Below, one piece after another: positions 5,082-62,228 of a stretch of DNA of 64,000 bases (position 1 is its first letter; the number at the start of each line of letters is the position of its first letter). Source of the stretch: an uncultured Rikenellaceae bacterium (GTDB lineage: Bacteria; Bacteroidota; Bacteroidia; Bacteroidales; VadinHA17); NCBI GenBank assembly GCA_963802145.1, contig CAWDHN010000006.1:7434-71433 (forward strand), given 5' to 3'. The position numbers were made by a program, and so were the translations under genes. Below the pieces are notes generated by a model. The model did not search any database and had not been told where the DNA came from. It saw only the letters and a list, made by a program, of their open reading frames with translations.

Positions 5082-8000
5082 TTACTCAAGGTTGATGCTC
5101 AGTCCGAGCCCGCGCAGTTCATGCAGGAGCACGTTGAGCGACTCAGGGATGCCCGGCATGGGCATCGGTTCACCCTTGACAATAGCCTCGTATGCCTTGG
5201 CTCTACCTATCACGTCGTCAGACTTGATGGTGAGTATCTCCTGGAGAATATGCGCCGCGCCGAATGCTTCCAGCGCCCATACCTCCATCTCTCCGAACCT
5301 CTGGCCTCCGAACTGTGCCTTACCTCCGAGAGGCTGCTGGGTGATGAGCGAGTAGGGCCCTATCGAACGGGCGTGCATCTTGTCATCAACCATATGGCCC
5401 AGCTTGAGCATATATATCATCCCCACGGTGGCCGGCTGGTCAAACCGTTCGCCGGTACCGCCGTCATAGAGATAGGTGGTGCCGTTACGCGGTATACCTG
5501 CCTTTTCCGTCAGGTCATTGATCTGCGATTGCTTCGCACCGTCGAAGATCGGTGTCGAGAATTGCATCCCCATCTCTTTGCCTGCCCATCCCAGGACAGT
5601 CTCATAAATCTGTCCGAGGTTCATCCTGGAAGGCACACCGAGCGGGTTAAGAACGATATCCACAGGCGTACCGTCAGCAAGGAAGGGCATGTCCTCGGCA
5701 CGGACTATCTTGGCAACGATACCCTTGTTACCGTGGCGTCCGGCCATCTTGTCTCCCACCCGTATCTTGCGCTTCTTGGCAATATAGACCTTGGCCAGCC
5801 TTACGATACCTGCGGGCAGCTCATCACCGATGGTGATGTTGTACCTCTTCCTCTTGTATACACCGTCAATCTCCTTGTACTTGATGATATAGTTGTGAAG
5901 GAGCTGTTTGATACTGTCGTTCTTCTTCTTGTCAGTGGTCCACTTGTTGGGGTTGATGTTCAGGAAGTCAATCTCCTGGAGCTGCTTCAGCGTGAACTTA
6001 GCTCCCTTGGGGATGACGTCGACGTTGAGGTAATCCTTTACGCCCTGCGACGTCTTGCCGTTAACAAGTATGAAGAGCTTGTCAACCAGCCTTGCCTTGA
6101 GATCGTCTGCCGTTCGGTTGAAGTCGGCGTCAATCTTGTCAAGCAGAGGTTTCTCGGCAGTCTTGGCCTTCCGGTCCTTGATAGCCCTGGTAAACAGTTT
6201 CTTGTCAATGACCACGCCTTCGAGCGACGGTCCGGCCTTGAGTGAAGCATCCTTCACGTCACCGGCCTTGTCTCCGAAGATAGCCCTGAGGAGCTTCTCC
6301 TCAGGTGACGGGTCTGATTCACCCTTGGGTGTGATCTTGCCGATGAGTATGTCTCCCGGCCTGATCTGTGCACCTATGCGTATAAGTCCGTTCTCGTCGA
6401 GGTTCTTTGTTGCCTCTTCGCTGACGTTGGGGATATCGGAGGTAAGCTCTTCCATCCCGCGCTTGGTGTCGCGCACCTCCAGGAGGTACTCGTCAATGTG
6501 CACCGAGGTGAAGACATCTTCCTGTACCACTCTCTCGCTGAGCACGATGGCATCCTCGAAGTTGTATCCCTTCCATGGCATGAATGCCACCTTGAGGTTA
6601 CGCCCGAGAGCCAGTTCGCCGTTCTTGGTGCCGTACCCTTCGGTAAGCACCTGTCCCTTGACAACCTTCTCACCCTTCTTTACTATGGGTATGAGGTTGA
6701 TGGTGGTGTTCTGGTTGGTCTTATGGTATTTGGGCAGCGTGTAGCGCCTGACGTCGTCGTCAAAGCTCACGAACTTCTCTTCGTCGGTCCTGCTGTACCT
6801 TATCACGATCTCGTTGGAGTCAACAAACTCCACCACGCCGTCGCCTTCGGCAACGATCAGGATCCTTGAGTCTTTTATAACCTGTGCTTCGAGGCCGGTG
6901 CCCACTATCGGAGCCTCGGGCCTTACCAGCGGTACTGCCTGGCGCATCATGTTCGATCCCATGAGCGCGCGGTTGGCATCGTCATGCTCAAGGAAGGGGA
7001 TCAGTGATGCGGCTATGGAGGCGATCTGGTTGGGCGCCACGTCCATCATCTGTACCTTCGTGACCTCCTCGTAGGGATAGTCTGCACCCAGCCTCGACTT
7101 GGCCCTTGGGTTGGTGAAGGTGCCGTCATCATTCAGCGGAGCGTTGGCCTGTGCCACGGTGAGGTACTCCTCGTCCTCGGCGGTGAGCCACCTGACGGTT
7201 TCATTGTTCAGGTCTACCTTGCCCTCAACCACGTCGCGGTAGGGTGTCTCAATGAAGCCCAGCGTGTTTATCTTGGCATAGACGCAGAGCGATGAGATAA
7301 GGCCGATGTTCGGACCTTCAGGCGTCTCTATGGGGCAGAGACGTCCGTAGTGCGTATAGTGTACGTCTCGTACCTCGAATCCGGCACGTTCGCGTGAAAG
7401 ACCGCCCGGGCCCAGGGCTGAGAGGCGGCGCTTGTGCGTCATCTCCGCCAGCGGGTTGGTCTGGTCCATGAACTGTGACAGCTGGTTGGTGCCGAAGAAC
7501 GAGTTGATGACAGATGAGAGCGTCTTTGAGTTGATAAGATCGACGGGGGTGAATACCTCGTTGTCTCTTACGTTCATGCGTTCGCGTATGGTACGGGCCA
7601 TGCGGGCGAGACCGACACTGAACTGTGCCGAGAGCTGTTCACCCACGGTGCGTACCCTCCTGTTGCTCAGGTGGTCAATGTCATCGACATCGGTCTTCGA
7701 GTTGATGAGCTCGATAAGATAACGGATGATGGCGATGATATCCTCGCGGGTGAGGATCTTGGTGTCCATGCCAATGTCGAGCTTCAGCTTGCGGTTTATC
7801 CGGAAGCGTCCTACCTCTCCAAGGTCATAGCGCTTGTCTGAGAAGAAGAGCTTGTCAATGACATCGCGGGCGGTGGCCTCATCAGGCGGCTCGGCGTTGC
7901 GCAGCTGCCTGTAGATGTATAGTACAGCCTCTTTCTCGGAGTTGCAGGGGTCTTTCTGCAGTGTGTTGTATATGATGGCGAAGTCAGAGAGGCTCATATC

Positions 8001-15369: not shown

Positions 15370-16482
15370 TCATTTCAAAACTTTTGATGAAATAAATTCA
15401 TAATCGTTGCCCGCAGCGCCCGGGGAGGGCCTTACATAGGGAGCCAGACGCTCAGCCTGCTGCGTGCTGATGATCTTGTTGCCGACCATCGACCCCAGCG
15501 TCAGAGGGGGATCAGTGAGTGTCCTGAACCTGCTTATCAGCCTTGCGGTTTCATAACCCACATAGGGATGGCGTGCAAGATCACCGAAGGAAACGCTGTC
15601 GAGGAGCAGGGGCGCGACGGAATCAAAGGTCAGTGTCAACATGGGGGTTATCAGGCTGACGACAGAGCTGTCGAGGCCATATACCTCCCTGAGCTGGTCT
15701 GTTGCGACAAAACCGCCAAGCAGTGCGCGGTACTTTATTATCCTCGCCGAGAGTACCGGTCCGATGCCCGGCAGGCTCTCCAGCTCCTCTGCACTGCACC
15801 TGTTAAGATCGATAAGCACCACCGGTGACTCCCCTGGCGCCCCCTCTGCAGGAGTCCCACGCCCGGATGACGGGGAATACGCTGACTGAGTCCCACGCCC
15901 GGATGACGGGGAATACGCTGCCGGAGCCCCATGCCCGGATGACGTGGAGTACCGGTCAGCAGGCCTTGCTTCAGGAAAGTACCTGTCAGCCCTCCCGGCT
16001 CCCTCTGCCGGAGTGGTCGCCGACCCGTACGATACCTTTCCGGCAGGATCCTCTGCAATAATAATATACGGACCAAGGCGTGCGGCTGTTGATGAGTCTA
16101 TCCCGTAAACCCTGGCCAGATCTTCAGGCCGCCGGAACCTTGCACCGCTGTTACGGTAGTTTATAAGCGTGCCTGCCTGCTTCCCGGTAAGCCCCAGCCG
16201 CAGCAGGTCATCGTACGGGACCGTGTTGGGATCAAATGTGAAGAGCTCCGGGCTGAGGCTCGCATCTGCACCGTTGCCTGCCGTACTGTCGGCCGGTGCC
16301 GCGGGAGGCCTGAGATCGTCAGGCACCCTGCCGGGCCTGAGAGCGGTAAATCTCACCATTATAAGTACTATGAGCAATACCGACAGCAGGTACGTACCCC
16401 GCCTCTCCCGGCGGTCAAAACCGAATAACCCGGCAGCGATCTTCCTGAATGGCTTCACATCTGATACAGCAAGAGACAGCAC
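15370..16482 (-). CDS. ComEA-like helix-hairpin-helix DNA-binding protein with a low-complexity repeat linker
   Basis: 370 aa with one N-terminal TM helix and HhH motifs (LTGKQAGTLINYR; LESLPGIGPVLSARIIKYR). The central linker carries the repeat YSPSSGRGT. Confidence 0.75.
   Translation of the reverse strand: MLSLAVSDVKPFRKIAAGLFGFDRRERRGTYLLSVLLIVLIMVRFTALRPGRVPDDLRPPAAPADSTAGNGADASLSPELFTFDPNTVPYDDLLRLGLTGKQAGTLINYRNSGARFRRPEDLARVYGIDSSTAARLGPYIIIAEDPAGKVSYGSATTPAEGAGRADRYFPEARPADRYSTSSGHGAPAAYSPSSGRGTQSAYSPSSGRGTPAEGAPGESPVVLIDLNRCSAEELESLPGIGPVLSARIIKYRALLGGFVATDQLREVYGLDSSVVSLITPMLTLTFDSVAPLLLDSVSFGDLARHPYVGYETARLISRFRTLTDPPLTLGSMVGNKIISTQQAERLAPYVRPSPGAAGNDYEFISSKVLK
15854..15961. repeat. 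36-bp tandem repeat, 3 units, inside the ComEA-like CDS
   Basis: Units at 15854-15889 and 15890-15925 are nearly identical (gtcccacgcccggatgacggggaatacgctg...). The third unit is diverged. They encode the repeats (A/Q)SAYSPSSGRGT. Confidence 0.9.
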
Positions 16483-16520
16483 AAGTTATGCAAAAAAGAA
16501 ATCCGTGTCAAGAGCTGAGA

Positions 16521-16631
16521 GATTTGCGAACTGCGATTTGCGATTTGCGAATGGGGTGTTTGGCTTGAGATTTGCGATTTGGGATCTGGGTATTTTTAAA
16601 ATCGGCAATCGAAAATCTTAAATCGCAAATC
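16521..16631 (-). repeat. Heptad-hairpin intergenic element, copy A (full element with an internal insertion)
   Basis: It starts at the base after the TAG stop (16632-34) of the OMP gene. Read on the minus strand: GATTTGCGATTTAAGATTTTCGATTGCCGATTTT...CATTCGCAAATCGCAAATCGCAGTTCGCAAATC. The 12-mers 16569-16580 and 16620-16631 are perfect reverse complements. Confidence 0.85.
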
Positions 16632-18998
16632 CTAAAACGGATATCCAATCCCGATGACCATCGTCAGATCATCCCTGCGGTCAAAGGTGCCGTTCAGGGG
16701 TATCCACTTGGACCCCTCCGTGGCCATGGGATCGCGGAGTTTCATTCCAAAATCGGCCCTCAGGAGCACGAATTTGATGTCGAACCTTAATCCCGCCCCT
16801 GCCCCTACAGCGATATCGTCAAGGAAGGTATCAAACCTGAACTGGCTGCCGGGTCTGTCCTCATCAGGCTTTACGGTCCATATATTGCCCACATCAACAA
16901 ACGTTGCACCCTCAAGTATCCAGAAGAGCTTGAACCGGTATTCGATGTTGGCCTCCAGTTTCATGTCGGAAGTCAGGTTGATGAATGTACTCTCCTCGGG
17001 CATGACATAGGAGCCGGGACCGAGGGTCCGTACCACCCACGCCCTGATATCATTGGAGCCGCCACCGAAATACTGCTCCTCGAAGGGCATGACCTTTGAG
17101 TTCCCGTAGGCCCATCCTACGCCGGCATACCACCTGTAGACGATACTGCTTGCATCATTGAACCTGTAATTATACGCAGCATCCACCTCTGCCTTGATGA
17201 ATTGCGCAAAGGGCTGCCCGAAGAGGTGGTATGTACCGTCTGAAGCCTTCTCCGCGTTACCCAGGGAGTAAAACATGTTGAGCAGGTTACCGGCGATATC
17301 AAGTCCGAGGCGTATGTTCCAGTAATCCTTTGACTTAGGGATCAACTGGTTGTTGAAGACATAATCGTACCGTCCGCCCACAATCCTGACGTCGCGGTAA
17401 GAAGAGGCAAGGTATGAGGTGGTATCAATCATCGCCTGGTATTCGGGATCAACATAATGCATCTTGACCACATTGAACGACAGTGGAATGATATTGAATT
17501 TCGTGCGTTTGTTGCCAATCCACGAGTAGCCGAGGGATATATTGGCGACTGAGCGCGCGTAGACCGGCACCATCTGGAAGTTATAACCCGCCTGAAATAC
17601 CGTTCGGGGGTCATGGTCGCGGATAAACTTCTCCTTTTCGGGGATTGGCAAAAGGAATTTTGGCAGCCTGAGATTGGCTTCAAAGCCGTACTGCTGTATA
17701 TTCTCGAATCCTGCAGACTCGTCGTTGACAGATTCATATGCCCCCTGCAGCTTCAGGCTGAAGACCTCTGCGCCTCCGAAAAGGCTTTTGTTCTGATATA
17801 TCAGGTTCAGTGCTCCGCCAAGGTTACCTCCCCAATTTGTTGTACCTTCGAGCTCAACGGTGAATGACTGCCTCATCAGGGGAGTGAGCTGAATGATGCA
17901 GTCGAGCATGCCCACATCTCTCCTTTCACCGGTAATGCCTTCTGCATCGATGTATGACACATTAACAAGCCTGTGGTTCTTGAGATCGGCCAGGTGAGTT
18001 TCCGTCTGCCTGGCATTTGTCTGGCTGAACCACGCCCCGGGTGCGACATAGAGTGCCTGGGTCAGCACCTCGGGCTTGACCAGCTGCCTGCCGGGCGGTG
18101 CGACGAAGTGGATCCCCTTGTAAAAAGTTGTGTCAAAGGTCATGGTGTATGCCTCCCCTGCCGTGAGTGACAGACTGGGATCAAAGTCAGGAAAGACATA
18201 TACATCCCTTACCCGGTACATCCGGTGGTTGCTGTATTCCGGCCGGCCCTTGCTGTCCAGGGTGCTCCTTAGGGTAACGACATACTGTACAATGACCTGG
18301 TGGTTCATCTGCGTACTGTCAATACGGAAATAGATATTCTCCGACGAGAAGGTGAAAAAACCCAGGTCCCTTATGAAGAGTTCCAGTCTCTGGCGCTCAC
18401 GCTGGAGAAGGTCTACATCGTATATCATCCCCCTCTTCACGGTGCAGTTCGACGTGTCCATCATCACGAAGGTGGAAAGGATAGTATCCTGAATATCATA
18501 CTGTACGCTGGCTATTGTATAGGGTCTGCCGGGGTCAACGGCATACTGTACCCTGGCCTCTCTCTTTTCGGTCTTCACCGTGTCTGCGACCCTGGCATTG
18601 AAAAACCCCTTTGACCAAAGGTAGCTCTCTATCTGTCCGGCTGATCTGTCTGCCGCTGCGGGATCAAATACCACCGGCTCCTCGCCGATCCTTCTCAGCC
18701 ACCCGTGGGGCCACTTGCTCTTCTCAATATTTGAAAGGTTATAGAGCCCGAGGTGGAACCTGGCGCCAAAGATCTTCTTGTTTGGCTGTTGCCGGAGATA
18801 AGGTTTTATCGCACTCTTGCTGACCGTTGATGGCAACGGCACGCTGCTCTCTTTCAGCACAATCACGTTGCTGTTCAGGAGCAAGTCGTCTCTTGGGACA
18901 TATTTTGTGGGGTTGCAGGAGGCTACCGTAAAAATAATGATCACCAGCAGAAACAGTTTGGGAGCAGTAATTTTTATATTTGTTCTCTGATGGATCAA
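16632..18998 (-). CDS. BamA/TamA (Omp85) family outer membrane protein, lipoprotein-type signal
   Basis: Long ORF with a beta-barrel-like C-terminus ending in F. The track start (GTG at 19067) overlaps the divergent trmH gene and a -7 box. An in-frame TTG at 18998 gives (M)IHQRTNIKITAPKLFLLVIIIFTVASC. The start position is an inference. Confidence 0.75.
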   Translation of the reverse strand: MIHQRTNIKITAPKLFLLVIIIFTVASCNPTKYVPRDDLLLNSNVIVLKESSVPLPSTVSKSAIKPYLRQQPNKKIFGARFHLGLYNLSNIEKSKWPHGWLRRIGEEPVVFDPAAADRSAGQIESYLWSKGFFNARVADTVKTEKREARVQYAVDPGRPYTIASVQYDIQDTILSTFVMMDTSNCTVKRGMIYDVDLLQRERQRLELFIRDLGFFTFSSENIYFRIDSTQMNHQVIVQYVVTLRSTLDSKGRPEYSNHRMYRVRDVYVFPDFDPSLSLTAGEAYTMTFDTTFYKGIHFVAPPGRQLVKPEVLTQALYVAPGAWFSQTNARQTETHLADLKNHRLVNVSYIDAEGITGERRDVGMLDCIIQLTPLMRQSFTVELEGTTNWGGNLGGALNLIYQNKSLFGGAEVFSLKLQGAYESVNDESAGFENIQQYGFEANLRLPKFLLPIPEKEKFIRDHDPRTVFQAGYNFQMVPVYARSVANISLGYSWIGNKRTKFNIIPLSFNVVKMHYVDPEYQAMIDTTSYLASSYRDVRIVGGRYDYVFNNQLIPKSKDYWNIRLGLDIAGNLLNMFYSLGNAEKASDGTYHLFGQPFAQFIKAEVDAAYNYRFNDASSIVYRWYAGVGWAYGNSKVMPFEEQYFGGGSNDIRAWVVRTLGPGSYVMPEESTFINLTSDMKLEANIEYRFKLFWILEGATFVDVGNIWTVKPDEDRPGSQFRFDTFLDDIAVGAGAGLRFDIKFVLLRADFGMKLRDPMATEGSKWIPLNGTFDRRDDLTMVIGIGYPF

Positions 18999-19844: not shown

Positions 19845-19852
19845 GAGGGACA

Positions 19853-19969
19853 GACTTCAGTCTTCAGTCTTCAGTCTTCAGTCCTCAGTCCTCAGTCTTG
19901 TCAATAGGCCTAACCATCTGTTTATTAATTCTTAATTCCTGCGACTGCCGACTGCTGACTGCCGACTGG
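19853..19969. repeat. Inverted (CAGTCNN)n heptamer arrays filling a convergent intergenic region (element F)
   Basis: The left array at 19853-19899 is (CAGTCTT)3(CAGTCCT)2CAGTCTT. The right array at 19939-19969 is CTGCGACTGCCGACTGCTGACTGCCGACTGG, the reverse complement of (CAGTCNN)4. Confidence 0.85.
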
Positions 19970-19970
19970 A

Positions 19971-21512
19971 TTACTGCCTGTCACGCGCCACTCTCCCGGC
20001 CACCAGCATGCCGTCGACTGCCGATGAGACGATGCCTCCGGCGTAGCCCGCTCCTTCACCTGCAGGAAATAATCCTTCAACATTGATCGCATTGAGCTTT
20101 TCAGGGTCACGGGTTATACGCACCGGCGAGGAGGTACGTGATTCCACTGCTGCCACGAGGGCCTCACCCGTAAGATAACCCTTCATCTTCTTCCCGAAAT
20201 CCCTGAACCCCTCACGCAACCGCATGGAGATCTCCTGTGGCAGCCACTCGTGCAGTGGCGAGGCCGTCAGGCCGGGGAAATATGATCCCTCCGGCAGTGT
20301 TGCCGATGCTCTTCCATCAACAAAATCAGTGAGCCTCTGTGCCGGAGCCCGCTGTGTCATGCCTCCTTCCCTCCATGAAAGCTGTTCAAGGAACGACTGG
20401 TATTCCAGCCCTGCAAGGGCTCCTCCCCCATAATGTATCGCATCCTCCTCCCTTATCTCCGTGACAATGCCGCTGTTTGCCCACCGCGAGTTGCGCCGCG
20501 ATGGTGACATGCCGTTCACCACCACCTCACCGGGACTGGTTGCCGAGGGTACCATGAAACCGCCGGGGCACATGCAGAATGAGTATACGCCGCGGCCACC
20601 GGCCTGCGTCACCAGGTTGTATGCGGCAGCCGGGAGGTACTGGCCTCTCGCCTTGCCGTGATACTGTATGCGGTCAATCAACTCCTGCGGATGCTCGACC
20701 CTGACTCCCATGGCAAACGGTTTGTATTCGAGACTCACTCCCAGGGAAGCGAGAATATGGTATATATCCCTTGCTGAATGGCCTGTGGCGAGAATAATAT
20801 CATCAGCCCTGAACTCCTCGTTGCCGTTGACTGTCACCCCCCGGAAGAGGCCGTTCTCAATCATCATTCCAGTGATGCGCTTCCCGAAGAGCACCTCTCC
20901 CCCTGCTCCGGTTATGCTCTCCCGTATTGCCGTTACGACTCCCGGCAGCCTGTCGGTGCCCAGATGGGGATGGGCCTCATACAGTATCGCCGGATCAGCA
21001 CCGTGCAGGACGAGCAATTCGACCACCCGGCGGTTGTCGCCTCTCTTCTTCGACCTGGTGTAGAGCTTTCCGTCAGAGAAGGTGCCTGCCCCGCCCTCAC
21101 CGAAGCAGTAATTTGAGTCTGAATCCACAATATGTTTTGTGCTGATGGCTGCCACATCCCTCTTGCGCTCCTTCACCTCCCTGCCCCGCTCCAGAATCAC
21201 AGGCTTCAGTCCCGCCTCAATCAGGCTCAGCGCCGCAAAGAGTCCAGCGGGGCCGCTGCCTGCCACGAGCACCTCCCTTGCCCGGGAGACATCCCTGACC
21301 TTCAGCGGCGGTATCACCTCAGGGGGTTCTCCGGCACCGATGATCTGAACGGTAATGTTGATTTTTATCTCCGGCCTGCGGGCATCAACGGATCGCCGGA
21401 CGATGCGCATGGTGAAATCATCCCTCCCGGTCTTCCTGACCAGATAAGTCCTGAGCGAAGCCTCGTCAAAGGCTGTCTGAGGAGGCAGAACCAGGCTCAG
21501 CTCCTCAGCCAT
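19971..21512 (-). CDS. FAD-dependent oxidoreductase (COG2509-like uncharacterised dehydrogenase)
   Basis: 513 aa with the dinucleotide-binding motif VLVAGSGPAGLFAAL and the C-terminal FPAGEGAGYAGGIVSSAVDG. Confidence 0.75.
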   Translation of the reverse strand: MAEELSLVLPPQTAFDEASLRTYLVRKTGRDDFTMRIVRRSVDARRPEIKINITVQIIGAGEPPEVIPPLKVRDVSRAREVLVAGSGPAGLFAALSLIEAGLKPVILERGREVKERKRDVAAISTKHIVDSDSNYCFGEGGAGTFSDGKLYTRSKKRGDNRRVVELLVLHGADPAILYEAHPHLGTDRLPGVVTAIRESITGAGGEVLFGKRITGMMIENGLFRGVTVNGNEEFRADDIILATGHSARDIYHILASLGVSLEYKPFAMGVRVEHPQELIDRIQYHGKARGQYLPAAAYNLVTQAGGRGVYSFCMCPGGFMVPSATSPGEVVVNGMSPSRRNSRWANSGIVTEIREEDAIHYGGGALAGLEYQSFLEQLSWREGGMTQRAPAQRLTDFVDGRASATLPEGSYFPGLTASPLHEWLPQEISMRLREGFRDFGKKMKGYLTGEALVAAVESRTSSPVRITRDPEKLNAINVEGLFPAGEGAGYAGGIVSSAVDGMLVAGRVARDRQ

Positions 21513-26800: not shown

Positions 26801-27131
26801 TATGCTTCCCTGGATGTTCAGGAAATTCAAGGTCGGAACACTTGTTGGCAAACGGACCTGGGGAGGCCTGGTGGGAACACTCGGATTTCCCGAGCTTATG
26901 GATGGAGGCATGGTGACGGCACCCAACCTGGCTATCTGGACTGACGAAGGTTTTATAGTGGAAAACGTAGGGGTGGCCCCGGACATTGAGGTTGAACAAT
27001 GGCCTGCAGATGTCATTGAGGGAAGGGATCCTCAGCTTGAGAAAGCCATTGAGGTGGCGCTCAGGGAGCTTGAGAAGAACCCGCCAGCCGAGCCGGTGAG
27101 GCCGCCATATCCGGTGAGGGTGAGGAAATAA
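23832..27131 (+). CDS. Tricorn-protease-like S41 peptidase (beta-propellers, PDZ, S41 domain)
   Basis: 1099 aa with a signal peptide, TolB/WD40-like repeats (SPDGK..IAF repeated), and a C-terminal S41 region (IDERFNGGG, TAGSGGD). Confidence 0.85.
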   Translation: MKRTILVSILITALLSMAVQDMNGINTSDTRMMSQPAVSPSHIAFIYAEDLWVMNADGSSPRRLTVDEGIESDPCFSPDGKLIAFSAQYDGNTDVFIIPVEGGLPVRLTWHPGNDIVSGFTPNGTSVLFSSQRSSFTSRYTQLYTIGISGGYPVKLQIPNAYDATYSPDGRRMAYIPIAPRHGQWKNYRGGTVSTIWVYEFADRSVVKIPQPDGGCNDTEPMWIGDKIYFVSDRNGELNLFSYNVSGGEILQLTKYDDFPVLKASASTGRIVFEQAGYLHSLEIATGAAAKLKVGIAADLLELRPRYIQGPNYIRSGDISPTGSRVVFDYRGEIITLPAEKGDPRNITLTPGAHETYPSWSPDGKTIAFFSDASGEYTLHLKPQDGKGEPKIFTLPGTGFYAFPKWSPDSKKITFVDNGRNFYLLDIQSGIINKIASDDLYVPDPFRAMSGDWSSDSRWIAYTRVMPTYFRVVYLYSVDQQKSFPVTDGLSDASEPVFDPNGEYIYFFASTDAGPVLNWFDLSSADMRSTSSIYLVTLRKEITSPFAKDSDEEKGTEEKADAEAPAPNAPGKTTKKDAKKDPAPEVKANLMKIDTEGLQERIVNVPVSAGNYTNLGVAATGEILYIERPDGQGASKLHKYSVKDRKDEEVMELDNYAVSADRKKMLYNKGMTFGISAAGKKPEPGKGILNTGALSVRIDPVAEWPQIFDEAWRINRDYFYDPGMHGADWKAMRVKYSQFLPDVACRSDLNRVIQWMCSELSVGHHRVGGGDRMSTPPRVGGGLLGADFSVENNRYRLKKIYGGLNWSPDLRSPLTEPGLNVKEGEYILAIDGKDVTADRNIHSFLENTDGKLIELTVGPNPVYAGSRVIKVVPVGNESSLRNRDWVEGNLRKVTEATDGRVAYVYVPNTSNQGHEYFKRYFFPQADRQAIIIDERFNGGGLIADYYIDLLQRPLQSYWNMRYGKDLKTPSASIQGPKVMIIDETAGSGGDMLPWMFRKFKVGTLVGKRTWGGLVGTLGFPELMDGGMVTAPNLAIWTDEGFIVENVGVAPDIEVEQWPADVIEGRDPQLEKAIEVALRELEKNPPAEPVRPPYPVRVRK

Positions 27132-27215
27132 AATTGCGATTTAAGATTTTCGATTGTCGATTTAAAAAACATTCGCAAATCGCAAATCGCAAATCGCAAA
27201 TCGCAAATCGCAAAT
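27132..27215 (+). repeat. Heptad-hairpin intergenic element, copy B (archetype)
   Basis: It starts at the base after the TAA stop (27129-31): AATTGCGATTTAAGATTTTCGATTGTCGATTTAAAAAACATT followed by (CGCAAAT)x6 at 27174-27215. The left arm is four degenerate NNGATTT heptads complementary to the right array. Confidence 0.9.
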
Positions 27216-27244
27216 ACTAACTACTTTCGACTAACCCCTCAGAC

Positions 27245-28324: not shown

Positions 28325-28440
28325 CGATGCCGGCGGCCGGTTAGCCACTGTCTGACATTCCTTATCCTCTTCGAGGAATTTTATTGGATTATAACCGTCT
28401 TTGCTACAATACTTTATGCGCTACGCGCAATTTTTCACCA

Positions 28441-28533
28441 CTGCTGACTGCCGTCCCGACGCACTTCGTGGCCGGGATTGAGCCTCCTCCTACGTCGGAG
28501 TCTCAAACTGCCGGCTGAGGACTTACCCTTCCC
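28441..28533 (+). repeat. Mosaic intergenic element G: heptads, conserved 60-nt two-hairpin core, GGCTGAGGAC module
   Basis: CTGCTGACTGCC, then the core 28453-28512 (GTCCCGACGCACTTCGTGGCCGGGATTGAGCCTCCTCCTACGTCGGAGTCTCAAACTGCC), then GGCTGAGGACTTACCCTTCCC. The core aligns with the reverse complement of 54203-54260. The last module aligns with 56663-56684. Confidence 0.8.
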
Positions 28534-28606
28534 TGCAATCTGGCTGCTCGCTGTAATGACCCACCGGGTCATTACTTAACGCTCGCCCCTCGACTGGTCT
28601 GCTGTC

Positions 28607-32786: not shown

Positions 32787-32820
32787 AAAACCGGTTCTGT
32801 TCCCAGAGCCGGTTTTTTTA
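32787..32820. terminator. Bidirectional intrinsic terminator
   Basis: A-run, then AACCGGTTCT-GTTCCC-AGAGCCGGTT (one G:U pair), then a T-run. It lies 23 nt after the stop of the BNR protein. Confidence 0.75.
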
Positions 32821-32821
32821 T

Positions 32822-32905
32822 AAGTCATAAAGTCTTGAAAATTTGCGATTTGCGATTTGCGATTTGCGATTAAATCGACAATCGAAAATCTTAAATCGAA
32901 AATTC
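32822..32905 (-). repeat. Heptad-hairpin intergenic element, copy C
   Basis: Read on the minus strand, beginning 12 nt after the msrBA stop: GAATTTTCGATTTAAGATTTTCGATTGTCGATTTAA followed by (TCGCAAA)x4. On the plus strand this is (ATTTGCG)x4 at 32841-32868. It ends in TAAGTCATAAAGTCT nonamer-like units. Confidence 0.88.
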
Positions 32906-32914
32906 TTCTTCTGC

Positions 32915-44081: not shown

Positions 44082-46187
44082 ATGCATGATATTCTTGAAC
44101 TGAGCGAAATGCTTGTTCCCGAATTGAGGGAAATAGCGAAGCAGCTCAAAATTAAGAGGGCAGAGCTCCTCAAGAAACAGGATCTCATATATAAGATCCT
44201 TGATCAGCAGGCCATAGATGCTGCTGACACCCGTAAAACAGCCAGAATTGAAGGCCCGTCGCCCGACAGGCAGGCGGACCGCTCCGGTCAGCAGCAGAAA
44301 CAGCCTGACAGGCCCAGGCCACCGCAGCAACAGCAGAAACCCAGGGGGCCGAAGCCCCAGGGGCAGCAGCAGAGGCCGCCGCAACCGCAGGACCAGCGGC
44401 AGCAGAAGCCTCAGCAGCCACAGGGACCGAAGCCAAACCAGCCTCAGCAGCAATCGCAGCCGCAATTGCCTGGCCAGCCACAGCAGCAGAACCAGCAGAG
44501 GCCACCGCAACAGAACCAGCAGCAACAGAGCCAGCCGCAGCCCGGACAACCCCAGCAGGGACCGGCACAGGGTCAGCCTCAGAGACAGCCGCAGCAGCAG
44601 AGGCCGCAACAGCCGCAGAAGTGGAACCAAAACCGCAATAAACGGCCGCGCACCTACAATAATGACCAGCCGGATCAAAGAAGGCCTGATGGTGATCGTC
44701 AGCCCCAGCAGCAGCAATCAATCCCTGCTGCTCCCGGAAGAGAGACGCCTCAGACTCAGTCACAGTCACAGCAGCCGCAGCAGAACCAACAGCAGCAGAA
44801 CCAGCCGCAATATAGCCAGCCGCAGCAGAACCATCCGCAGCCTCAGTCGCAGCCCGACAGGCCCATGTTTGCTTCCGAACAGGTCAATGAGCATGATCAG
44901 GATCTGCTCCGATTCAGCGAACCTGAAAATGATACACACATCATTGAAGCGGCGGCAACATCCGATGCATCGGTTATACTTCCTCCTGCCGCTCCTGAAG
45001 CCGTACCCGGCCACCATGATATTCCGGAGCCTGTAAGGGAAGAGAGAAAGGAAAGAGCATACGATTTTGAAGGTATAGTAGCCAACACCGGTGTACTGGA
45101 GATAATGCCCGACGGTTACGGGTTCCTCCGTTCTCCGGATTACAACTACCTCAGCTCACCTGATGACATATACGTATCACAGTCGCAGATAAAGCTCTTC
45201 GGGCTTAAGACCGGAGACACCATCAGGGGTACTATCCGCCCGCCGCGTGAGGGAGAGAAGTATTTCCCGCTCATAAAGGTTGAAGAGATCAACGGCCGCA
45301 CTCCTGATTTCATCCGTGACAGGGTGCCGTTCGATTACCTCACTCCGCTTTTCCCAAATGAAAAATTCACGCTCTGCAAACCCGGTGAAGGAAACCTGTC
45401 AGTGCGTATCGTTGACATGTTCTGCCCGATAGGCAAGGGACAGCGCGGCCTGATAGTGGCACAGCCCAAGACAGGTAAGACGATCCTCCTTCAGGATATT
45501 GCCAACGCAATTGCCAAATTCCATCCGGAGGTCTACCTGATGATCCTCCTCATAGATGAACGTCCAGAAGAGGTGACTGAGATGGCTCGCAACGTCAACG
45601 CCGAGGTCATCGCCTCTACCTTTGACGAACCTGCCGAGAGGCACGTGCGTATCGCCACCATAGTTCAGGAAAAGGCCAAGAGGCTTGTCGAGTGCGGTCA
45701 TGACGTGGTCATACTCCTTGACTCCATCACCCGCCTTGCAAGAGCATTCAATACCATAGCTCCCGCATCAGGCAAGGTTCTCTCGGGCGGTGTTGATTCC
45801 AACGCCCTGCATAAACCGAAGAGGTTCTTCGGCGCAGCACGCAACATTGAGAACGGAGGCTCACTAACCATCATCGCCACCGCCCTCACAGACACCGGGT
45901 CAAAAATGGATGATGTCATCTTTGAAGAGTTCAAGGGTACGGGTAACATGGAGCTCCAGCTCGACCGCAAGCTGTCAAACAGGAGGATATTCCCTTCCAT
46001 AGACATACCTGCCTCAAGCACACGGCGCGAAGACCTGCTGCTCGACAGGAACATGCTGAGCAAGATATGGATACTCCGCAACTACCTCACCGACATGAAC
46101 TCGGTGGAAGCCATGGAATTCCTGCGTGACCGCATAACCCAGACACGCTCCAATGAGGAGTTCCTTATTTCGATGAACAGCGAATAA
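44082..46187 (+). CDS. rho: Transcription termination factor Rho with a Q/P-rich insertion of about 280 aa
   Basis: Rho_N ([18 protein letters not shown]), a low-complexity insert at aa 46-325, a CSD/OB domain ([14 protein letters not shown]), and an ATPase domain ([17 protein letters not shown]). Confidence 0.97.
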
Positions 46188-52772: not shown

Positions 52773-54128
52773 ATGAGAATAGTAATTGCCGGCGCTGGAG
52801 AGGTGGGGACCCATCTGGCCAAGATGCTCTCGCAGAGCGAACATGAGATCATTCTGATAGACTCCGAGGCTGAGCGTCTCAAACCTGTTGATGCAGCCCT
52901 TGACGTTCTTACTTTCGAGGGTTCGGCTACCTCGCTCAACCTTCTCCGGGAGGCCATCAAGAAGCATACCGACCTCTTTATAGCCGTTGCGCACTATGAG
53001 GACACGAACATCACTTCCGCCGTCCTGGCCAAGAAACTGGGCGCCCGTAAGGTGATAGCACGCATTGACAATATGGAATACCTTGAGCGTGCCAACAAGG
53101 AGTTCTTCCGGGAGATGGGTGTTGATCACCTGATCTACCCGGAGCTTATTGCCGCCAAAGAGGTGATAAGCCTGCTGAAGGAGACCGGCACCACCGAGTT
53201 CATGGATTTTGCCGGCGGGCTGCTGTCGCTCTACGTACAGAAGCTCGAGAAGAACGCCCCTGTCCTCAATCGCAGCCTCGAGGAGGTTAGCAACACCCTG
53301 GGATCAATCATAAAGTACCGTGCAGTGGCAATCAAGAGACATGAGCTGACCATCATTCCAAGGGGCAAGGAGGAGTTTCACGAAGGTGACCTGGCGTTTG
53401 TCATCTCCACCCGTGACGGGATAGATGACATGATGAAGTTCTCAGGCAAGCGCAACACTCAGGCCAAGAGCATCATGGTGCTCGGAGGAAGCCGTATCGG
53501 GAGGCATATAGCGCTCAACCTGCAGCACGACTGCCAGGTGAAGCTGATCGATTATAACATGGAGAAATGCCGCGACCTGGCTGAGGAGCTCGAGGAGACA
53601 CTGGTGATACACGGTGACGGAAGGAACGGTGACCTGCTTGCCGAGGAGGGTCTTCAGCATATGGATGCCTTCGTTGCCGTGACTGGCAACTCCGAGACAA
53701 ACATACTCTCATGCCTCCTGGCAAAGAAGATAGGTGTGATGAAGACCATTGCCGAGGTGGAGAACATGGAATACATCAATCTTGCCGAGAACTCAGGGAT
53801 TGACACCATCATCAACAAGAAGATAGCCACTGCCAGCCGTATCTTCCGACATACCATGAACCCCAACGTCACCCAGGTCAAGATGATGACCGGCACCGAG
53901 GCTGAGGTCATTGAATATAATGTCCCGGAGGGTGCGCGCATCACCAGCGGACCGCTGAAGCTGATAGACTTTCCCAAGGATGCAATCGTCGGTGGCGGGA
54001 TTCGCGACTACAAGCCATATATTGCAACCGGAGACACCCTTATCAGGGCCGGAGACAAGGTGGTGGTCTTCGCCCTGCCGTCAGCCTTTGACAAGCTGAA
54101 CAAGTTTTTCAATTCGGAAAAGAGGTAA
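52773..54128 (+). CDS. trkA: Trk system potassium uptake protein TrkA
   Basis: 451 aa with two Rossmann NAD-binding modules (IVIAGAGEVG; IMVLGGSRIG), each followed by a TrkA_C region. Confidence 0.93.
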   Translation: MRIVIAGAGEVGTHLAKMLSQSEHEIILIDSEAERLKPVDAALDVLTFEGSATSLNLLREAIKKHTDLFIAVAHYEDTNITSAVLAKKLGARKVIARIDNMEYLERANKEFFREMGVDHLIYPELIAAKEVISLLKETGTTEFMDFAGGLLSLYVQKLEKNAPVLNRSLEEVSNTLGSIIKYRAVAIKRHELTIIPRGKEEFHEGDLAFVISTRDGIDDMMKFSGKRNTQAKSIMVLGGSRIGRHIALNLQHDCQVKLIDYNMEKCRDLAEELEETLVIHGDGRNGDLLAEEGLQHMDAFVAVTGNSETNILSCLLAKKIGVMKTIAEVENMEYINLAENSGIDTIINKKIATASRIFRHTMNPNVTQVKMMTGTEAEVIEYNVPEGARITSGPLKLIDFPKDAIVGGGIRDYKPYIATGDTLIRAGDKVVVFALPSAFDKLNKFFNSEKR

Positions 54129-54282
54129 GAAGGCTGAAAGTCCTTAAAGTCTGTAAGGTCCATAAAGTCCGTAAAGTCCGTAAAGTCGAAAGTCTGAAAA
54201 TTGCAAATTTGAGCCTGCGATCTAGGAGCAGGATAAATCCCGGACACGCAGTGTCGGGACGCAAATCGAAAATCGCAAATCA
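54129..54282. repeat. Mosaic intergenic element D: nonamer array, two-hairpin core (reverse orientation), AAATCGC heptads
   Basis: It fills the whole trkA/tsaC convergent gap. Nonamers (RTAAAGTCY) run 54137-54196. The core is at 54203-54260. The sequence GCAAATCGAAAATCGCAAATCA at 54261-54282 runs into the tsaC stop codon. Confidence 0.85.
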
Positions 54283-54894
54283 CAATTCCAGCACTCCCCT
54301 GCCCTGCCTTAGTATGACGGGTTCCGGGCCTGTGCAGTCAACCACGGTTGAGGGTTCGTTGCTCCCGAAACCACCGTCAACCACCAGGTCGGCAAAATCA
54401 TCATACTTCTCATGAATAAGCTCGGGATCAGTTATATACTCAATGATCTCGTCATCCTCATGTATGGAGGTAGTCACCAGTGGCCTGCCCAGATCGTTGA
54501 CTATTGCCAGTGTGATGCTGTTGTCAGGTATGCGGATCCCCAAGGTCTTCTTGCGGTGCCTGAACATGGCCGGTATCTGGTTGTTCGCAGGTACAATGAA
54601 TGTGAATGGCCCCGGCAGGTTGCGCTTCAGCAGCCTGAAGAGGTTGTTGTCATGAATGACCGTGTATTCGGAGAGCTGACTCATTGACGAAAAGATCATC
54701 GACATGTCGGGGTTGCCCGGATTGAGGCCTTTGAAACGCGCGATCTTCTCAATGGTCTTTCCGGCTTTAATGTCGCAACCCATGGCATATATGGTGTCAG
54801 TGGGGTATATGACGATACCTCCCTGCTCAAGAACAAAGGTGACCCTTCGTATATGATCGGCATTGGGATTCTCCGGATAGATCTTCAGTATCAT
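54280..54894 (-). CDS. tsaC: L-threonylcarbamoyladenylate synthase (TsaC/YrdC type)
   Basis: 204 aa with YrdC-domain motifs (VIYPTDTIYAMGCD, PGPFTFI, TTSIH). Confidence 0.88.
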   Translation of the reverse strand: MILKIYPENPNADHIRRVTFVLEQGGIVIYPTDTIYAMGCDIKAGKTIEKIARFKGLNPGNPDMSMIFSSMSQLSEYTVIHDNNLFRLLKRNLPGPFTFIVPANNQIPAMFRHRKKTLGIRIPDNSITLAIVNDLGRPLVTTSIHEDDEIIEYITDPELIHEKYDDFADLVVDGGFGSNEPSTVVDCTGPEPVILRQGRGVLEL

Positions 54895-54952
54895 CGCTTC
54901 TTTAAAGTGACGGCAAATATATAAACTTCTTGCGAGAGGGGGGTAAAAAAAA

Positions 54953-55049
54953 GGGTAAGCTACTCACATCGCACCGCTACAACCTTCTACCCTTGCTGTC
55001 TTCCAACCCTGGGGGAGTTCAAAGGGAGCTGGTCGTATGAGACTTACCC
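54953..55049 (-). ncRNA. ffs: Signal recognition particle RNA (4.5S type)
   Basis: The minus strand reads GGGTAAG...CCCCCAGGGTTGGAAGACAGCAAGGGTAGAAGG...CTTACCC. The terminal helix is closed by GGGTAAG/CTTACCC. The GGAAG.CAGCAAGG.AG segment matches the conserved SRP domain IV motif (E. coli GGAAGGAAGCAGCCAAGGCAG). A canonical promoter lies upstream. Confidence 0.8.
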
Positions 55050-55053
55050 CGCA

Positions 55054-55085
55054 CAAAAATACGAACTTTTAAGCCCTGCTCCAAA
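55054..55085 (-). promoter_or_regulatory. Bacteroidota-type promoter of SRP RNA
   Basis: The minus strand has TTTG (55085-82), a 20-nt spacer, then TATTTTTG (55061-54), ending 4 nt before the first G of the RNA helix. Confidence 0.6.
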
Positions 55086-56668: not shown

Positions 56669-56723
56669 GGACGTTACCCATCCCATTCGACAATCGCAAA
56701 TCGCAAATCGCAAATCGCAAATC
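56663..56723 (+). repeat. Mosaic intergenic element E (half element): GGCTGAGGAC module plus (CGCAAAT)x4
   Basis: GGCTGAGGACGTTACCCATCCC (56663-84, spanning the TGA stop of the GT2 gene), then ATTCGACAAT, then (CGCAAAT)x4 at 56695-56722. No complementary left arm is present. Confidence 0.8.
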
Positions 56724-56744
56724 TCCCTGCCCCTGGTCCCTTGC

Positions 56745-61814: not shown

Positions 61815-62208
61815 GGGGCTGACCTGGTTTTGACAGCAAGCCGCGGTGGTATGTAAGCATGCAGAGTAGGGTGACGCATCTCTTTAACTTGTGTCACAAA
61901 ACAACAACAGGCGAGAATAACTACGCTCTTGCTGCGTAACTGAACTAAGTAGGTTATGCTTAATCCCGGCACAAGGTGCCGGGACGAGACGTTTCCCGGG
62001 CGGTGATGCCCAGTACCAACCCGATCAGGAAGCGCACGCAATTCAGGGATAGCCTGATGGTCTCTCCGGCCTGACGGTGAAATTAAAGGAGATAAGGTGT
62101 GATTCGGCTGTCTGCCACCTGGTCACACCCGACAATCAAGGCAGGATAAGCATGTAGAAAGCATATGGTCGCCTTGCCTGGACGCGGGTTCGACTCCCGC
62201 CAGCTCCA
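61815..62208 (+). ncRNA. ssrA: Transfer-messenger RNA (tmRNA)
   Basis: 5' GGGGCTGAC pairs with 3' CAGCTCCA. The T-arm is GGGTTCGACTCCC. The tag reading frame at 61910-61939 (GGCGAGAATAACTACGCTCTTGCTGCGTAA) encodes GENNYALAA, the Bacteroidota-type tag. Confidence 0.93.
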
Positions 62209-62228
62209 CGATCAAGCAGAAAACAAGC

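Follow-up and report, generated by a model that had tools for sequence, protein, structure and literature searches.

The subject of this analysis is a short two-hairpin repeat, here called the core, in the convergent gap between trkA and tsaC of an uncultured Rikenellaceae bacterium. It was studied in a 64,000-nucleotide (nt) stretch of DNA (assembly GCA_963802145.1, contig CAWDHN010000006.1, positions 7,434 to 71,433), referred to throughout as the window; DNA fetched from other assemblies is cited by L numbers. The gap is 151 nt long (54129-54279), and all of its arrays lie in one orientation around a 51-nt core on the minus strand (Table 1). Read on that strand from tsaC, the order is TG, ATTTGCG ATTTTCG ATTTGCG, the core TCCCGACACTGCGTGTCCGGGATTTATCCTGCTCCTAGATCGCAGGCTCAA, ATTTGCA ATTTTCA GACTTTC, then the 9-mers GACTTTACG GACTTTACG GACTTTATG GACCTTACA GACTTTAAG GACTTTCAG, followed by CCTTC and TTA (the trkA stop). 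The ATTTGCA unit directly 3' of the core agrees at 6 of 7 positions with the 7-mer across the core.

The first-pass annotation of this DNA had described the gap as a mosaic of repeat modules, with about six nonamers and a second, reverse-oriented copy of a two-hairpin core, and this description stands. Every string that it quoted is present where it was placed, including GAAAATTGCAAATTT (54196-54210); Tandem Repeats Finder reports 5.7 nonamers (AAAGTCCGT, 54137-54187, 83% matches) and a 7-mer array at 54263-54281; hairpin 1 is near perfect on the minus strand; and the core is 80% identical to the plus-strand copy listed as copy A. The extent of the core, given earlier as 54203-54260, becomes 54209-54259 when judged against 50 distinct family members. 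The reported overlap of a module with the tsaC stop codon also exists, in that GCAAATCGAAAATCGCAAATCA (54261-54282) ends on the TCA of that stop, and it amounts to a single base in strict phase: the last 7-mer occupies 54274-54280, and the first A of the first ATTTGCG unit is the A of the tsaC TGA.

Table 1. Features of the trkA/tsaC gap and the other core copy, in window coordinates
Feature	Position	Strand	Content or basis
trkA (451 aa; TrkA_N/TrkA_C)	52773..54128	+	Open reading frame (ORF); Pfam domains of the identical gene in L001-L004; left flank, outside the element
9-mer array, with short GACTTTC	54130..54194	-	3' of the core in core orientation
Two 7-mers directly 3' of the core	54195..54208	-
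Hairpin 2 (hp2)	54209..54237	-	TTTA-T-CCTGC / loop TCCTAGATC / GCAGG-C-TCAA; family alignment and pair counts
Hairpin 1 (hp1)	54238..54259	-	TCCCG-ACAC-TGC-GTGT-C-CGGGA; short form of the 51-nt family members
Three 7-mers 5' of the core	54260..54280	-
tsaC, Sua5/YciO/YrdC family (204 aa)	54280..54894	-	ORF and Pfam; right flank, unaltered by the element
Copy A, the other core copy	28454..28506	+	53-nt form with long hp1; CCTCC/GGAGT hp2 subfamily

A repeat family in uncultured Bacteroidales

The pattern TCCCGA-N8-16-GGRATTNANCC-N17-YTCAA was scanned over one genome per GTDB species and gave at least 111 matches; the family counts below refer to the matches listed. About 60 of the 111 were discarded after nhmmer as chance matches in coding DNA of unrelated phyla. 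An nhmmer profile search over all fetched DNA found at least 53 copies of full length (50 distinct sequences), as many as 3 of them in one 8-kb tile. All listed copies lie in about 25 metagenome-assembled genomes (MAGs) labelled Bacteroidales, Rikenellaceae or 'Rikenella', and in the sampled genomes the family is restricted to one clade of uncultured Bacteroidales carrying the labels Rikenellaceae or Bacteroidales. Among the most complete assemblies with the family are CAWFSO01 (contigs of 1.2 Mb), CAVOLF01, JARGFQ01 and GCA_964609955.1. A rough extrapolation from extra copies per tile and the two copies in the window gives a density of about 20 to 30 copies per Mb. L029 and L141 belong to one assembly that has the family, and its own trkA/tsaC gap (TsaC identity, 95%) is without a core.

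Copy A lies in the convergent gap between Ldh_2 and nitroreductase genes, flanked by ACTGCTG ACTGCCG (28440-28453) and ACTGCCG (28507-28513). The two window copies align with 80% identity over 56 nt (28452-28507) with one 2-nt indel (E = 5e-9 within the window), and they represent one member of each of the two core subfamilies. Elsewhere in the window, neither core half has a match with up to 3 mismatches, and shuffled controls gave zero matches. A candidate third copy at 61962-61986 was rejected, its weak hp1-like match being a chance resemblance to a helix of the tmRNA gene at 61815-62211 (plus strand; tag ENNYALAA).

Viral contigs contained zero matches to the pattern. When the 272 ORFs of 41 family loci were clustered all against all, no recurrent neighbor protein emerged beyond local synteny. 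A full-text search of a limited literature library found no description of this family or of elements like repetitive extragenic palindromes (REPs) in Bacteroidales.

The core consists of two maintained palindromic units

In the family alignment, hp1 (22 to 24 nt) and hp2 (29 nt) are both imperfect palindromes. The 51-nt form of the core has an hp1 of TCCCG-ACAC-TNC-GTGT-N-CGGGA and the 53-nt form one of TCCCGAC-G-CAC-TTC-GTG-GTCGGGA, while hp2 follows the consensus TTGA-K-CCTSC / 9-nt loop, usually TCCTNNGTC / GSAGG-Y-TCAA. Standard pairs fill 91% of cells on this structure versus 23 to 46% when partners are slid by 1 to 3 columns, with helix 1 paired at 98% and helix 2 at 85%. Two-sided changes occur at 7 pairs, a value reached by none of 500 shuffles. 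For example, pair 33-45 in hp2 reads C-G (28 copies) or G-C (18 copies), and pair 11-15 in hp1 has gone from C-G to T-A in 3 copies, a compensatory change of ACAC/GTGT to ACAT/ATGT. Even a mismatch in the hp2 stem is conserved as pyrimidine-pyrimidine, with T × C at pair 29-49 in 26 copies. Wobble pairs carry no strand signal (6 on the forward strand versus 7 reverse only). These features of the core point to DNA, not to one RNA strand.

The core is made of two separable palindromic units, because L025, L048 and L049 carry the hp2 loop as its reverse complement (GACGCAGGA versus the usual TCCTGCGTC), because the orthologous gaps of L016 and L025 have hp2 in the same chromosomal orientation with hp1 on opposite sides of it, and because hp1 occurs alone at L106:257-278. 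The hairpins, one per end, extend to the very ends of the conserved sequence: hp1 starts at core base 1, and the 3' end ...TCAA, invariant across the alignment, lies inside the hp2 stem. Terminal inverted repeats are absent from the core, as its ends, TCCCGACAC... (TCCCGAC...) and ...GGCTCAA, are not complementary. A variant with an extra mini-hairpin inside hp1 (TCCCGACTTCNTCGGGA plus linker, about 22 nt) occurs at L008:10650-10721, L020:2887-2958 and, decayed, in L053; it would have arisen by nested insertion or by partial duplication of internal sequence.

Cores sit in phase within matching 7-mers

Nearly all copies share a fixed junction within a 7-mer unit of the form AYTNNNG, with ...NNG preceding the core and AYT... 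following it. The unit itself varies by copy (ACTGCCG, ACTGCTG, ACTGAAG, ACTGGAG, ATTGCCT, ATTTGCG, ATTTTCG), and left and right units vary together. Their mean agreement is 5.5 of 7 positions, compared to 4.24 ± 0.16 when right flanks are shuffled among copies, in a set where most copies lie inside arrays that would yield an equal match. Agreement reaches at least 6 of 7 in 32 of 53 copies, including 4 with no array on either side; L049, for example, reads agtcaca ATTGCCT, core, ATTGCCT gactttt. A target-site duplication, raised in the first-pass annotation, would fit this excess over shuffles; no empty site was recovered, and at the trkA/tsaC locus no clean event of insertion with duplication could be reconstructed.

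The core subfamily tracks the flanking unit. Cores of the CCTCC/GGAG type have ACTG-type 7-mers in 23 of 29 copies, and in 19 of 20 CCTGC/GC(A/C)GG cores the 7-mers are of the ATT type, with both subfamilies coexisting in single genomes such as DZBJ01. Pairing of the 7-mer with the variable positions of the hp2 stem, as a kind of 'guide', was considered and rejected, as inspection found no consistent code: type I has TGC in both 7-mer and stem, yet copies flanked by ATTTTCG retain the identical stem.

Cores also occur next to each other, in tandem orientation at three loci. L038 has two different cores exactly one 7-mer apart, L020 has a core, one 7-mer and then the variant with the nested mini-hairpin, and L034 has two identical cores separated by 14 nt, or two 7-mers. 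The surrounding units are strongly oriented, with GAYTT found 134 times forward versus 36 reverse, and GACTG 78 versus 17, within 90 nt of cores. Arrays of GACYTTNNN 9-mers lie only 3' of the core, at 8 loci with 31 units (L030, L043, L044, L049, L087 and L089 among them), and none lies 5' in the same orientation. The layout at trkA/tsaC, nonamers on one side and heptamers on the other, is therefore an instance of a frequent polar mosaic of 7-mers, core, 7-mers and then GACTTTNNN 9-mers that recurs at non-orthologous loci (L043/L044, L049, L087, L089). Larger composites exist as well: L056, L080, L087 (two copies) and L089 have about 24 nt of left and 35 nt of right flank in common, and one contig holds two copies of a composite longer than 150 nt at a distance of 6 kb (L020/L053).

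An element with a hairpin at each end could be a miniature derivative of the IS200/IS605 or REP-associated tyrosine transposase (RAYT) type, that is, a REP, a REP doublet forming hairpins (REPIN) or a palindrome-associated transposable element (PATE), in which hp1 and hp2 would serve as end hairpins for a Y1 (HUH) transposase encoded elsewhere. This is attractive because of the two end hairpins, which are subterminal imperfect palindromes with conserved mismatches (the T × C at pair 29-49), and because of the invariant ...TCAA; the lack of terminal inverted repeats fits too, as does high copy number in extragenic 3' regions, a property of REPs according to PMC3733652. Like REPs, the core has imperfect palindromes of 20 to 40 nt, many copies (at least 53) and nearly always an intergenic position. 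The reading fails because the flanks are variable and duplicated and because a GTAG tag is missing. IS200/IS605 elements insert 3' of a fixed tetranucleotide without duplication, and PATEs 3' of a fixed tetra- or pentanucleotide, whereas the last four left-flank nucleotides of the core vary (..TGCG, ..GCCG, ..TTCG, ..GCCT, ..GAAG), match the right flank and co-vary with it. PATEs would have cleavage sites outside the subterminal hairpins, and the hairpins of the core reach its conserved ends; with hp1 beginning at base 1 there is no room for a 5' guide, and TCAA is within the hp2 stem, not 3' of it. No unpaired GTAG or CGTC end exists in the core. The string CGTC appears solely where a left 7-mer ending in CG meets the core, with its TC paired in hp1, and copies whose flank is ...GCCT, ...GAAG or ...GGAG are without it. 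REPIN-type inverted doublets are also missing, the two hairpins differing in sequence, and ORF clustering, without a profile search, showed no Y1 transposase in about 1 Mb of loci. We consider an origin of this kind improbable.

Strain alleles differ in the presence of the core

Contigs with 100% identical TsaC contain four gap alleles, with the core present (151 or 115 nt) or absent (121 nt). The metagenome series ERZ781235-ERZ781241 gave four different alleles of the gap. The window and L001 have the 151-nt layout of 7-mers, core, 7-mers and 9-mers and differ from each other at 4 of 51 core positions. L002 and L003 (115 nt) retain the core and lack most of the 9-mer array. In L004 (121 nt) the core and the two 7-mers 3' of it are replaced by the 35-nt series AATCGCG ATTTACC TTCAGAC CTTCAGC CTTCAAG. 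None of the four alleles, with or without the core, differs in the three 7-mers beside the tsaC stop. Within its final 28 nt, trkA of L002 (5440-5500) and L003 departs from the window (54100-54160) at 7 sites, mostly synonymous, in a background of 99.1 to 99.4% identity, which indicates a recombination tract ending in the repeat gap.

More distant relatives extend the range of gap lengths to 2 to 237 nt. Gaps are 2 nt at 97% TsaC identity, 15 nt at 93 to 94%, and 17 to 18 nt at 89 to 92%, all without repeats. One relative at 95% (L136) has a 71-nt gap made solely of the inverted arrays (CAGTCTT)5 and (GACTGCY)5, another at 95% has a core-less gap of 134 nt with AGTCTTC, AAGAATTA 8-mers and nine GACTGNN units, and a relative at 92% (L008) has a 237-nt gap with a diverged core that contains the nested mini-hairpin. 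Exact-flank scans of JGI metagenomes for strain alleles (GGAGTGCTGGAATTGTGATTT; GTATCATACCTTTTGCGTGATTTT from L073) returned nothing, and no clean empty site was found in them.

The first-pass annotation proposed that the element had inserted up to the end of tsaC or had supplied its stop codon. The core is indeed inserted or polymorphic DNA, present or absent beside identical TsaC, but neither a supplied stop codon nor a reshaped tsaC end is supported. That the 7-mer run begins on the A of TGA would suit a supplied stop, yet TsaC is 204 aa in nearly all homologues listed, down to 72% identity, and the ...LEL* C terminus and same-position stop (TGA; TAA in one lineage) also occur beside the repeat-free gaps of 2 to 18 nt. 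Because the stop has the same position in every locus compared, repeat-free relatives included, it is ancestral, with the repeat adjoining it, and an alteration of the gene end by the element is extremely improbable.

A second convergent gap, GT1/GT2, varies among strains and relatives as well. It carries GATTTGC ×4 in the window (gap, 56669-56744; array, 56683-56724) and ×5 in L001-L003 (L001:7803-7885), and in L008 it has a core between ATTTGCA and ATTGCTA where the window has only the 7-mer array. The same gap in L005 and L010 contains unrelated CAGTCTT-type arrays.

Recombination alone could be held responsible for such variation, with cores spreading by homologous recombination or gene conversion between like 7-mer arrays, arrays changing by slippage, and matching flanks merely mirroring the host array. 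The link between subfamily and 7-mer type, the block replacement that separates the trkA/tsaC alleles, the tract in L002/L003, the strain-variable number of GATTTGC units and the larger composites at different loci (about 24 to 35 nt of common flank) would all follow, and unequal crossing-over would suit the pair of identical cores in L034. In four copies, however, the single 7-mer per side is too short for RecA-type homology; two different cores stand one 7-mer apart in L038, the phase between G and AYT is fixed in nearly all copies, and the arrival of arrays and cores in gaps that measure 2 to 18 nt in sister lineages stays unexplained. As a complete account, recombination alone is unlikely.

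Preference for 3' gaps and a possible RNA role

By gap type, 21 family copies are in convergent, 12 in tandem (4 sense, 8 antisense) and 3 in divergent gaps. Of the gaps in the window, 5 of 8 convergent ones hold an array or a core, as do 2 of about 36 tandem ones, and none of the 9 divergent ones does. This distribution bears on the main non-selfish rival, an RNA 3'-end function, in which the core, alone or together with the arrays, would be a structured 3' untranslated region (UTR) module that works as a bidirectional terminator or a block to 3' exonucleases, selected in convergent gaps and dispersed secondarily. Such a function would account for stems kept by compensatory changes, for the strong enrichment in convergent 3' gaps and for the empty divergent gaps of the window; trkA and tsaC are otherwise served by no canonical terminator in the gap. 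On either strand, the core region (66 nt) folds better than its shuffles do (z = -2.3 and -2.0), and inverted pairs of 7-mer arrays in neighboring gaps fold as long periodic hairpins with 5-bp helices and 2 × 2 internal loops (z = -1.9 to -4.0).

Other observations argue against it. The whole gap folds no better than shuffles (z = +0.28 and -0.36), and neither strand of 53800-54600 contains a terminator-like site, the hairpins being without a U-tract or T-tract. An intrinsic (Rho-independent) terminator was ruled out, as no G+C-rich hairpin with a T-tract occurs in that interval, and a known RNA family was rejected in the gap, where Rfam gave no match at gathering thresholds and, at E ≤ 10, noise only (snR58). 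The strands show no G-U asymmetry, orientation to transcription in tandem gaps is not fixed, the hp2 loop occurs in both orientations, and the closest relatives have gaps of 2 to 18 nt with no hairpin. An RNA element as the primary identity of the core is unlikely. REPs also serve as RNA stabilizers, so an RNA role and a selfish repeat are not exclusive.

A probable selfish mosaic repeat

We favor, with a probability of roughly 60%, the reading that the core is a copy of a selfish mosaic repeat resembling REPs and bacterial interspersed mosaic elements (BIMEs), with gain, loss and reshuffling about as rapid as the divergence of strains. The reading draws on high copy number in one clade, on palindromes that are kept and show no strand bias, on nesting that is in phase between flanks that match, on cores that lie beside or inside one another and at positions that are not orthologous, on a core that near-identical strains may have or lack, and on the avoidance of gaps on the promoter side. 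We infer that the core itself is mobile, and single-stranded DNA hairpins may have a role. Cores would arrive at 7-mer sites by duplicating 7 bp or by settling between two units already there, recombination would copy and exchange entire mosaics as well, and elements would persist chiefly in convergent 3' gaps, where they would be harmless. Three compatible entry routes can be envisaged: transposition with a 7-bp duplication, insertion between array units, and homology-driven conversion between like arrays. The last would explain the link between subfamily and flank and the block-replacement alleles, but not the copies with single flanking 7-mers.

Several points weigh against a selfish repeat. 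No clean pair of filled and empty sites that would demonstrate transposition was found; the core-less allele of L004 is a replacement, neither an excision nor an empty site. Copy A is stable, being present in 7 of 7 strain contigs examined. No transposase or RAYT could be linked to the family in the family loci searched, and the core has no terminal inverted repeats. Co-variation of subfamily and flank is not what simple duplication of random targets predicts, and maintained palindromes with a 3'-gap preference are also expected of an RNA 3'-end element. Finally, genome-wide copy numbers are extrapolations, and the gene calls behind the context counts are crude, coming from a longest-ORF heuristic.

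A bolder version, which we regard as speculative and unlikely, is that a protein-less 51-nt element exists whose subfamilies each home to their own 7-mer type, duplicate it when they enter, and in this way seed and extend the 7-mer (and 9-mer) arrays found in the 3' gaps of these genomes. If true, this would be a new class of ultra-small mobile DNA with target choice encoded in the nucleic acid of the element, and a mechanism for the origin of bacterial heptamer arrays.

Most knowledge of REPs, BIMEs, neisserial intergenic mosaic elements (NIMEs) and small dispersed repeats (SDRs) comes from Proteobacteria and Cyanobacteria, and the means by which the majority of them move is not settled. The present family would add a Bacteroidales example with informative anatomy, in which nesting is in phase, flanks co-vary with each other and with the subfamily, and gaps range from 2 to 237 nt. 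Target choice and the origin of heptamer arrays would become questions answerable from population metagenomes of these organisms. Such gaps are also recombination and assembly break-points in MAGs and useful strain markers. For trkA and tsaC nothing changes, both genes being intact.

Comparison with known repeats

In behavior, the family appears by analogy to be closest to enterobacterial BIMEs and neisserial NIMEs, with the SDRs of Nostoc also near to it. REPs and BIMEs form variable mosaics with other short motifs, are polymorphic between strains, and have insertion sequences (ISs) inserted into or beside them. NIMEs and Correia elements are intergenic short-repeat mosaics that recombine, vary between strains and cluster near gene 3' ends. 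A 20-bp inverted repeat, dRS3, combined with RS segments underlies NIMEs, and Correia elements are bounded by terminal inverted repeats of 26 bp and carry a TA duplication; all of these are absent in the core. In keeping with BIMEs, hp1 and hp2 behave as two kinds of palindromic unit whose relative orientation can change, and the family matches REPs and BIMEs of Enterobacteria and Pseudomonas, as portrayed in PMC3733652 and PMC3116915, in its short imperfect palindromes, high copy number and extragenic location, mostly in convergent or co-directional gaps. Unlike them, the core has no sequence relationship to REPs, no RAYT was identified among the family loci, cores stand in register in 7-mer arrays between matching 7-mers, and 9-mers are associated with one side.

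Miniature inverted-repeat transposable elements (MITEs) are likewise non-autonomous, short and dispersed, with a short flanking direct repeat. Unlike MITEs, the core has no terminal inverted repeats and is shorter than is typical, and its flanking repeat, part of a tandem array, varies along with the subfamily.

In cyanobacteria, Elhai et al. reportedly described in 2008 that SDR4 to SDR6 of Nostoc and Anabaena lie inside tandem heptameric repeats, other repeats and HIP1 sites. These SDRs, which have no coding capacity, are said to have been judged mobile by comparison of orthologous loci. HIP1 has been proposed as an SDR5 insertion site, according to PMC5861425. Compared with SDRs, which are cyanobacterial and 21 to 27 nt long, the core is 51 to 53 nt long, has two hairpins and occurs in Bacteroidales.

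The 7-mer flanks have their own precedent. Long simple-sequence repeats of 7-nt units were reportedly described by Mrazek et al. in 2007. They are a known class, the commonest with long units, for which slippage has been proposed as the mechanism (PMC4679880). The flanks of the core are of this kind, with head-to-tail 7-nt units, intergenic position and strain-variable number (GATTTGC ×4 versus ×5). TAACTGA heptamers of Beggiatoaceae, Cyanobacteria and Bacteroidetes are also intergenic and differ in copy number or presence between close relatives, but they lie mostly just upstream of start codons and have no palindromic core (PMC4679880). The arrays described here stand at 3' ends, comprise several unit types sharing GAYT, often form inverted pairs, and host the core.

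Other repeats in the window and family loci

Inverted pairs of 7-mer arrays occur in the window at 16518-16645, 19845-19972, 27128-27220 and 32815-32910 and at L136:758-828, for example CAGTCTT ×N followed by GACTGCY ×N, or GATTTGC ×N followed by AAATCGN ×N. In L136, the periodic array hairpin makes up the entire trkA/tsaC gap.

Two further modules are found near copy A. The first, CTACAATACTTTATGCGCTACGCGCAAT, a small GCGC-TAC-GCGC palindrome with a CTAC/GTAG end, is at 28404-28431, about 20 nt 5' of copy A, and recurs in other genomes (L029:99-122; L048:640-760; L125:3924-3947 and 5318-5341). In L125, an IS110-family IS (PF01548/PF02371) directly follows ...CATAAAGTATTGTAG and has the same motif at its far end, so that CTACAATACTTTATGCGCTACGCGCAAT looks like a target or end sequence of this IS. 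The IS was rejected as a mobilizer of the core or as an insertion into it, since it adjoins a different module (...CATAAAGTATTGTAG) and lies outside the core. The second module, CCCTGCARNCNGGCT...[variable G+C hairpin]...TTAACGCTCGCCCCTC, is at 28531-28600 and often lies 30 to 130 nt from ACTG-type cores; it also occurs at L019:4060, L056:7019, L064:3436, L073:2947 and 7809, L089:67, L097:5010 and L102:3614. Its middle hairpin varies, being GTAATGACCCACCGGGTCATTAC in the window and the hp1-like TCCCGACGTATTGTGTCGGGA in L097.

Directly upstream of tsaC is a Bacteroidales small signal recognition particle (SRP) RNA (54949-55056, minus strand). A 36-nt tandem repeat (2.8 copies, 89% matches, 15851-15952) lies in the minus-strand ORF 15370-16482. 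Imperfect tandem repeats of the CAG/CAGCAGAAC type at 44477-44846 lie in ORF 44082-46187, a 701-aa Rho homologue; its orthologues in L005 and L008 have Rho_N, Rho_RNA_bind and ATP-synt_ab domains, and the repeats of the window would encode a Q/N-rich insertion.

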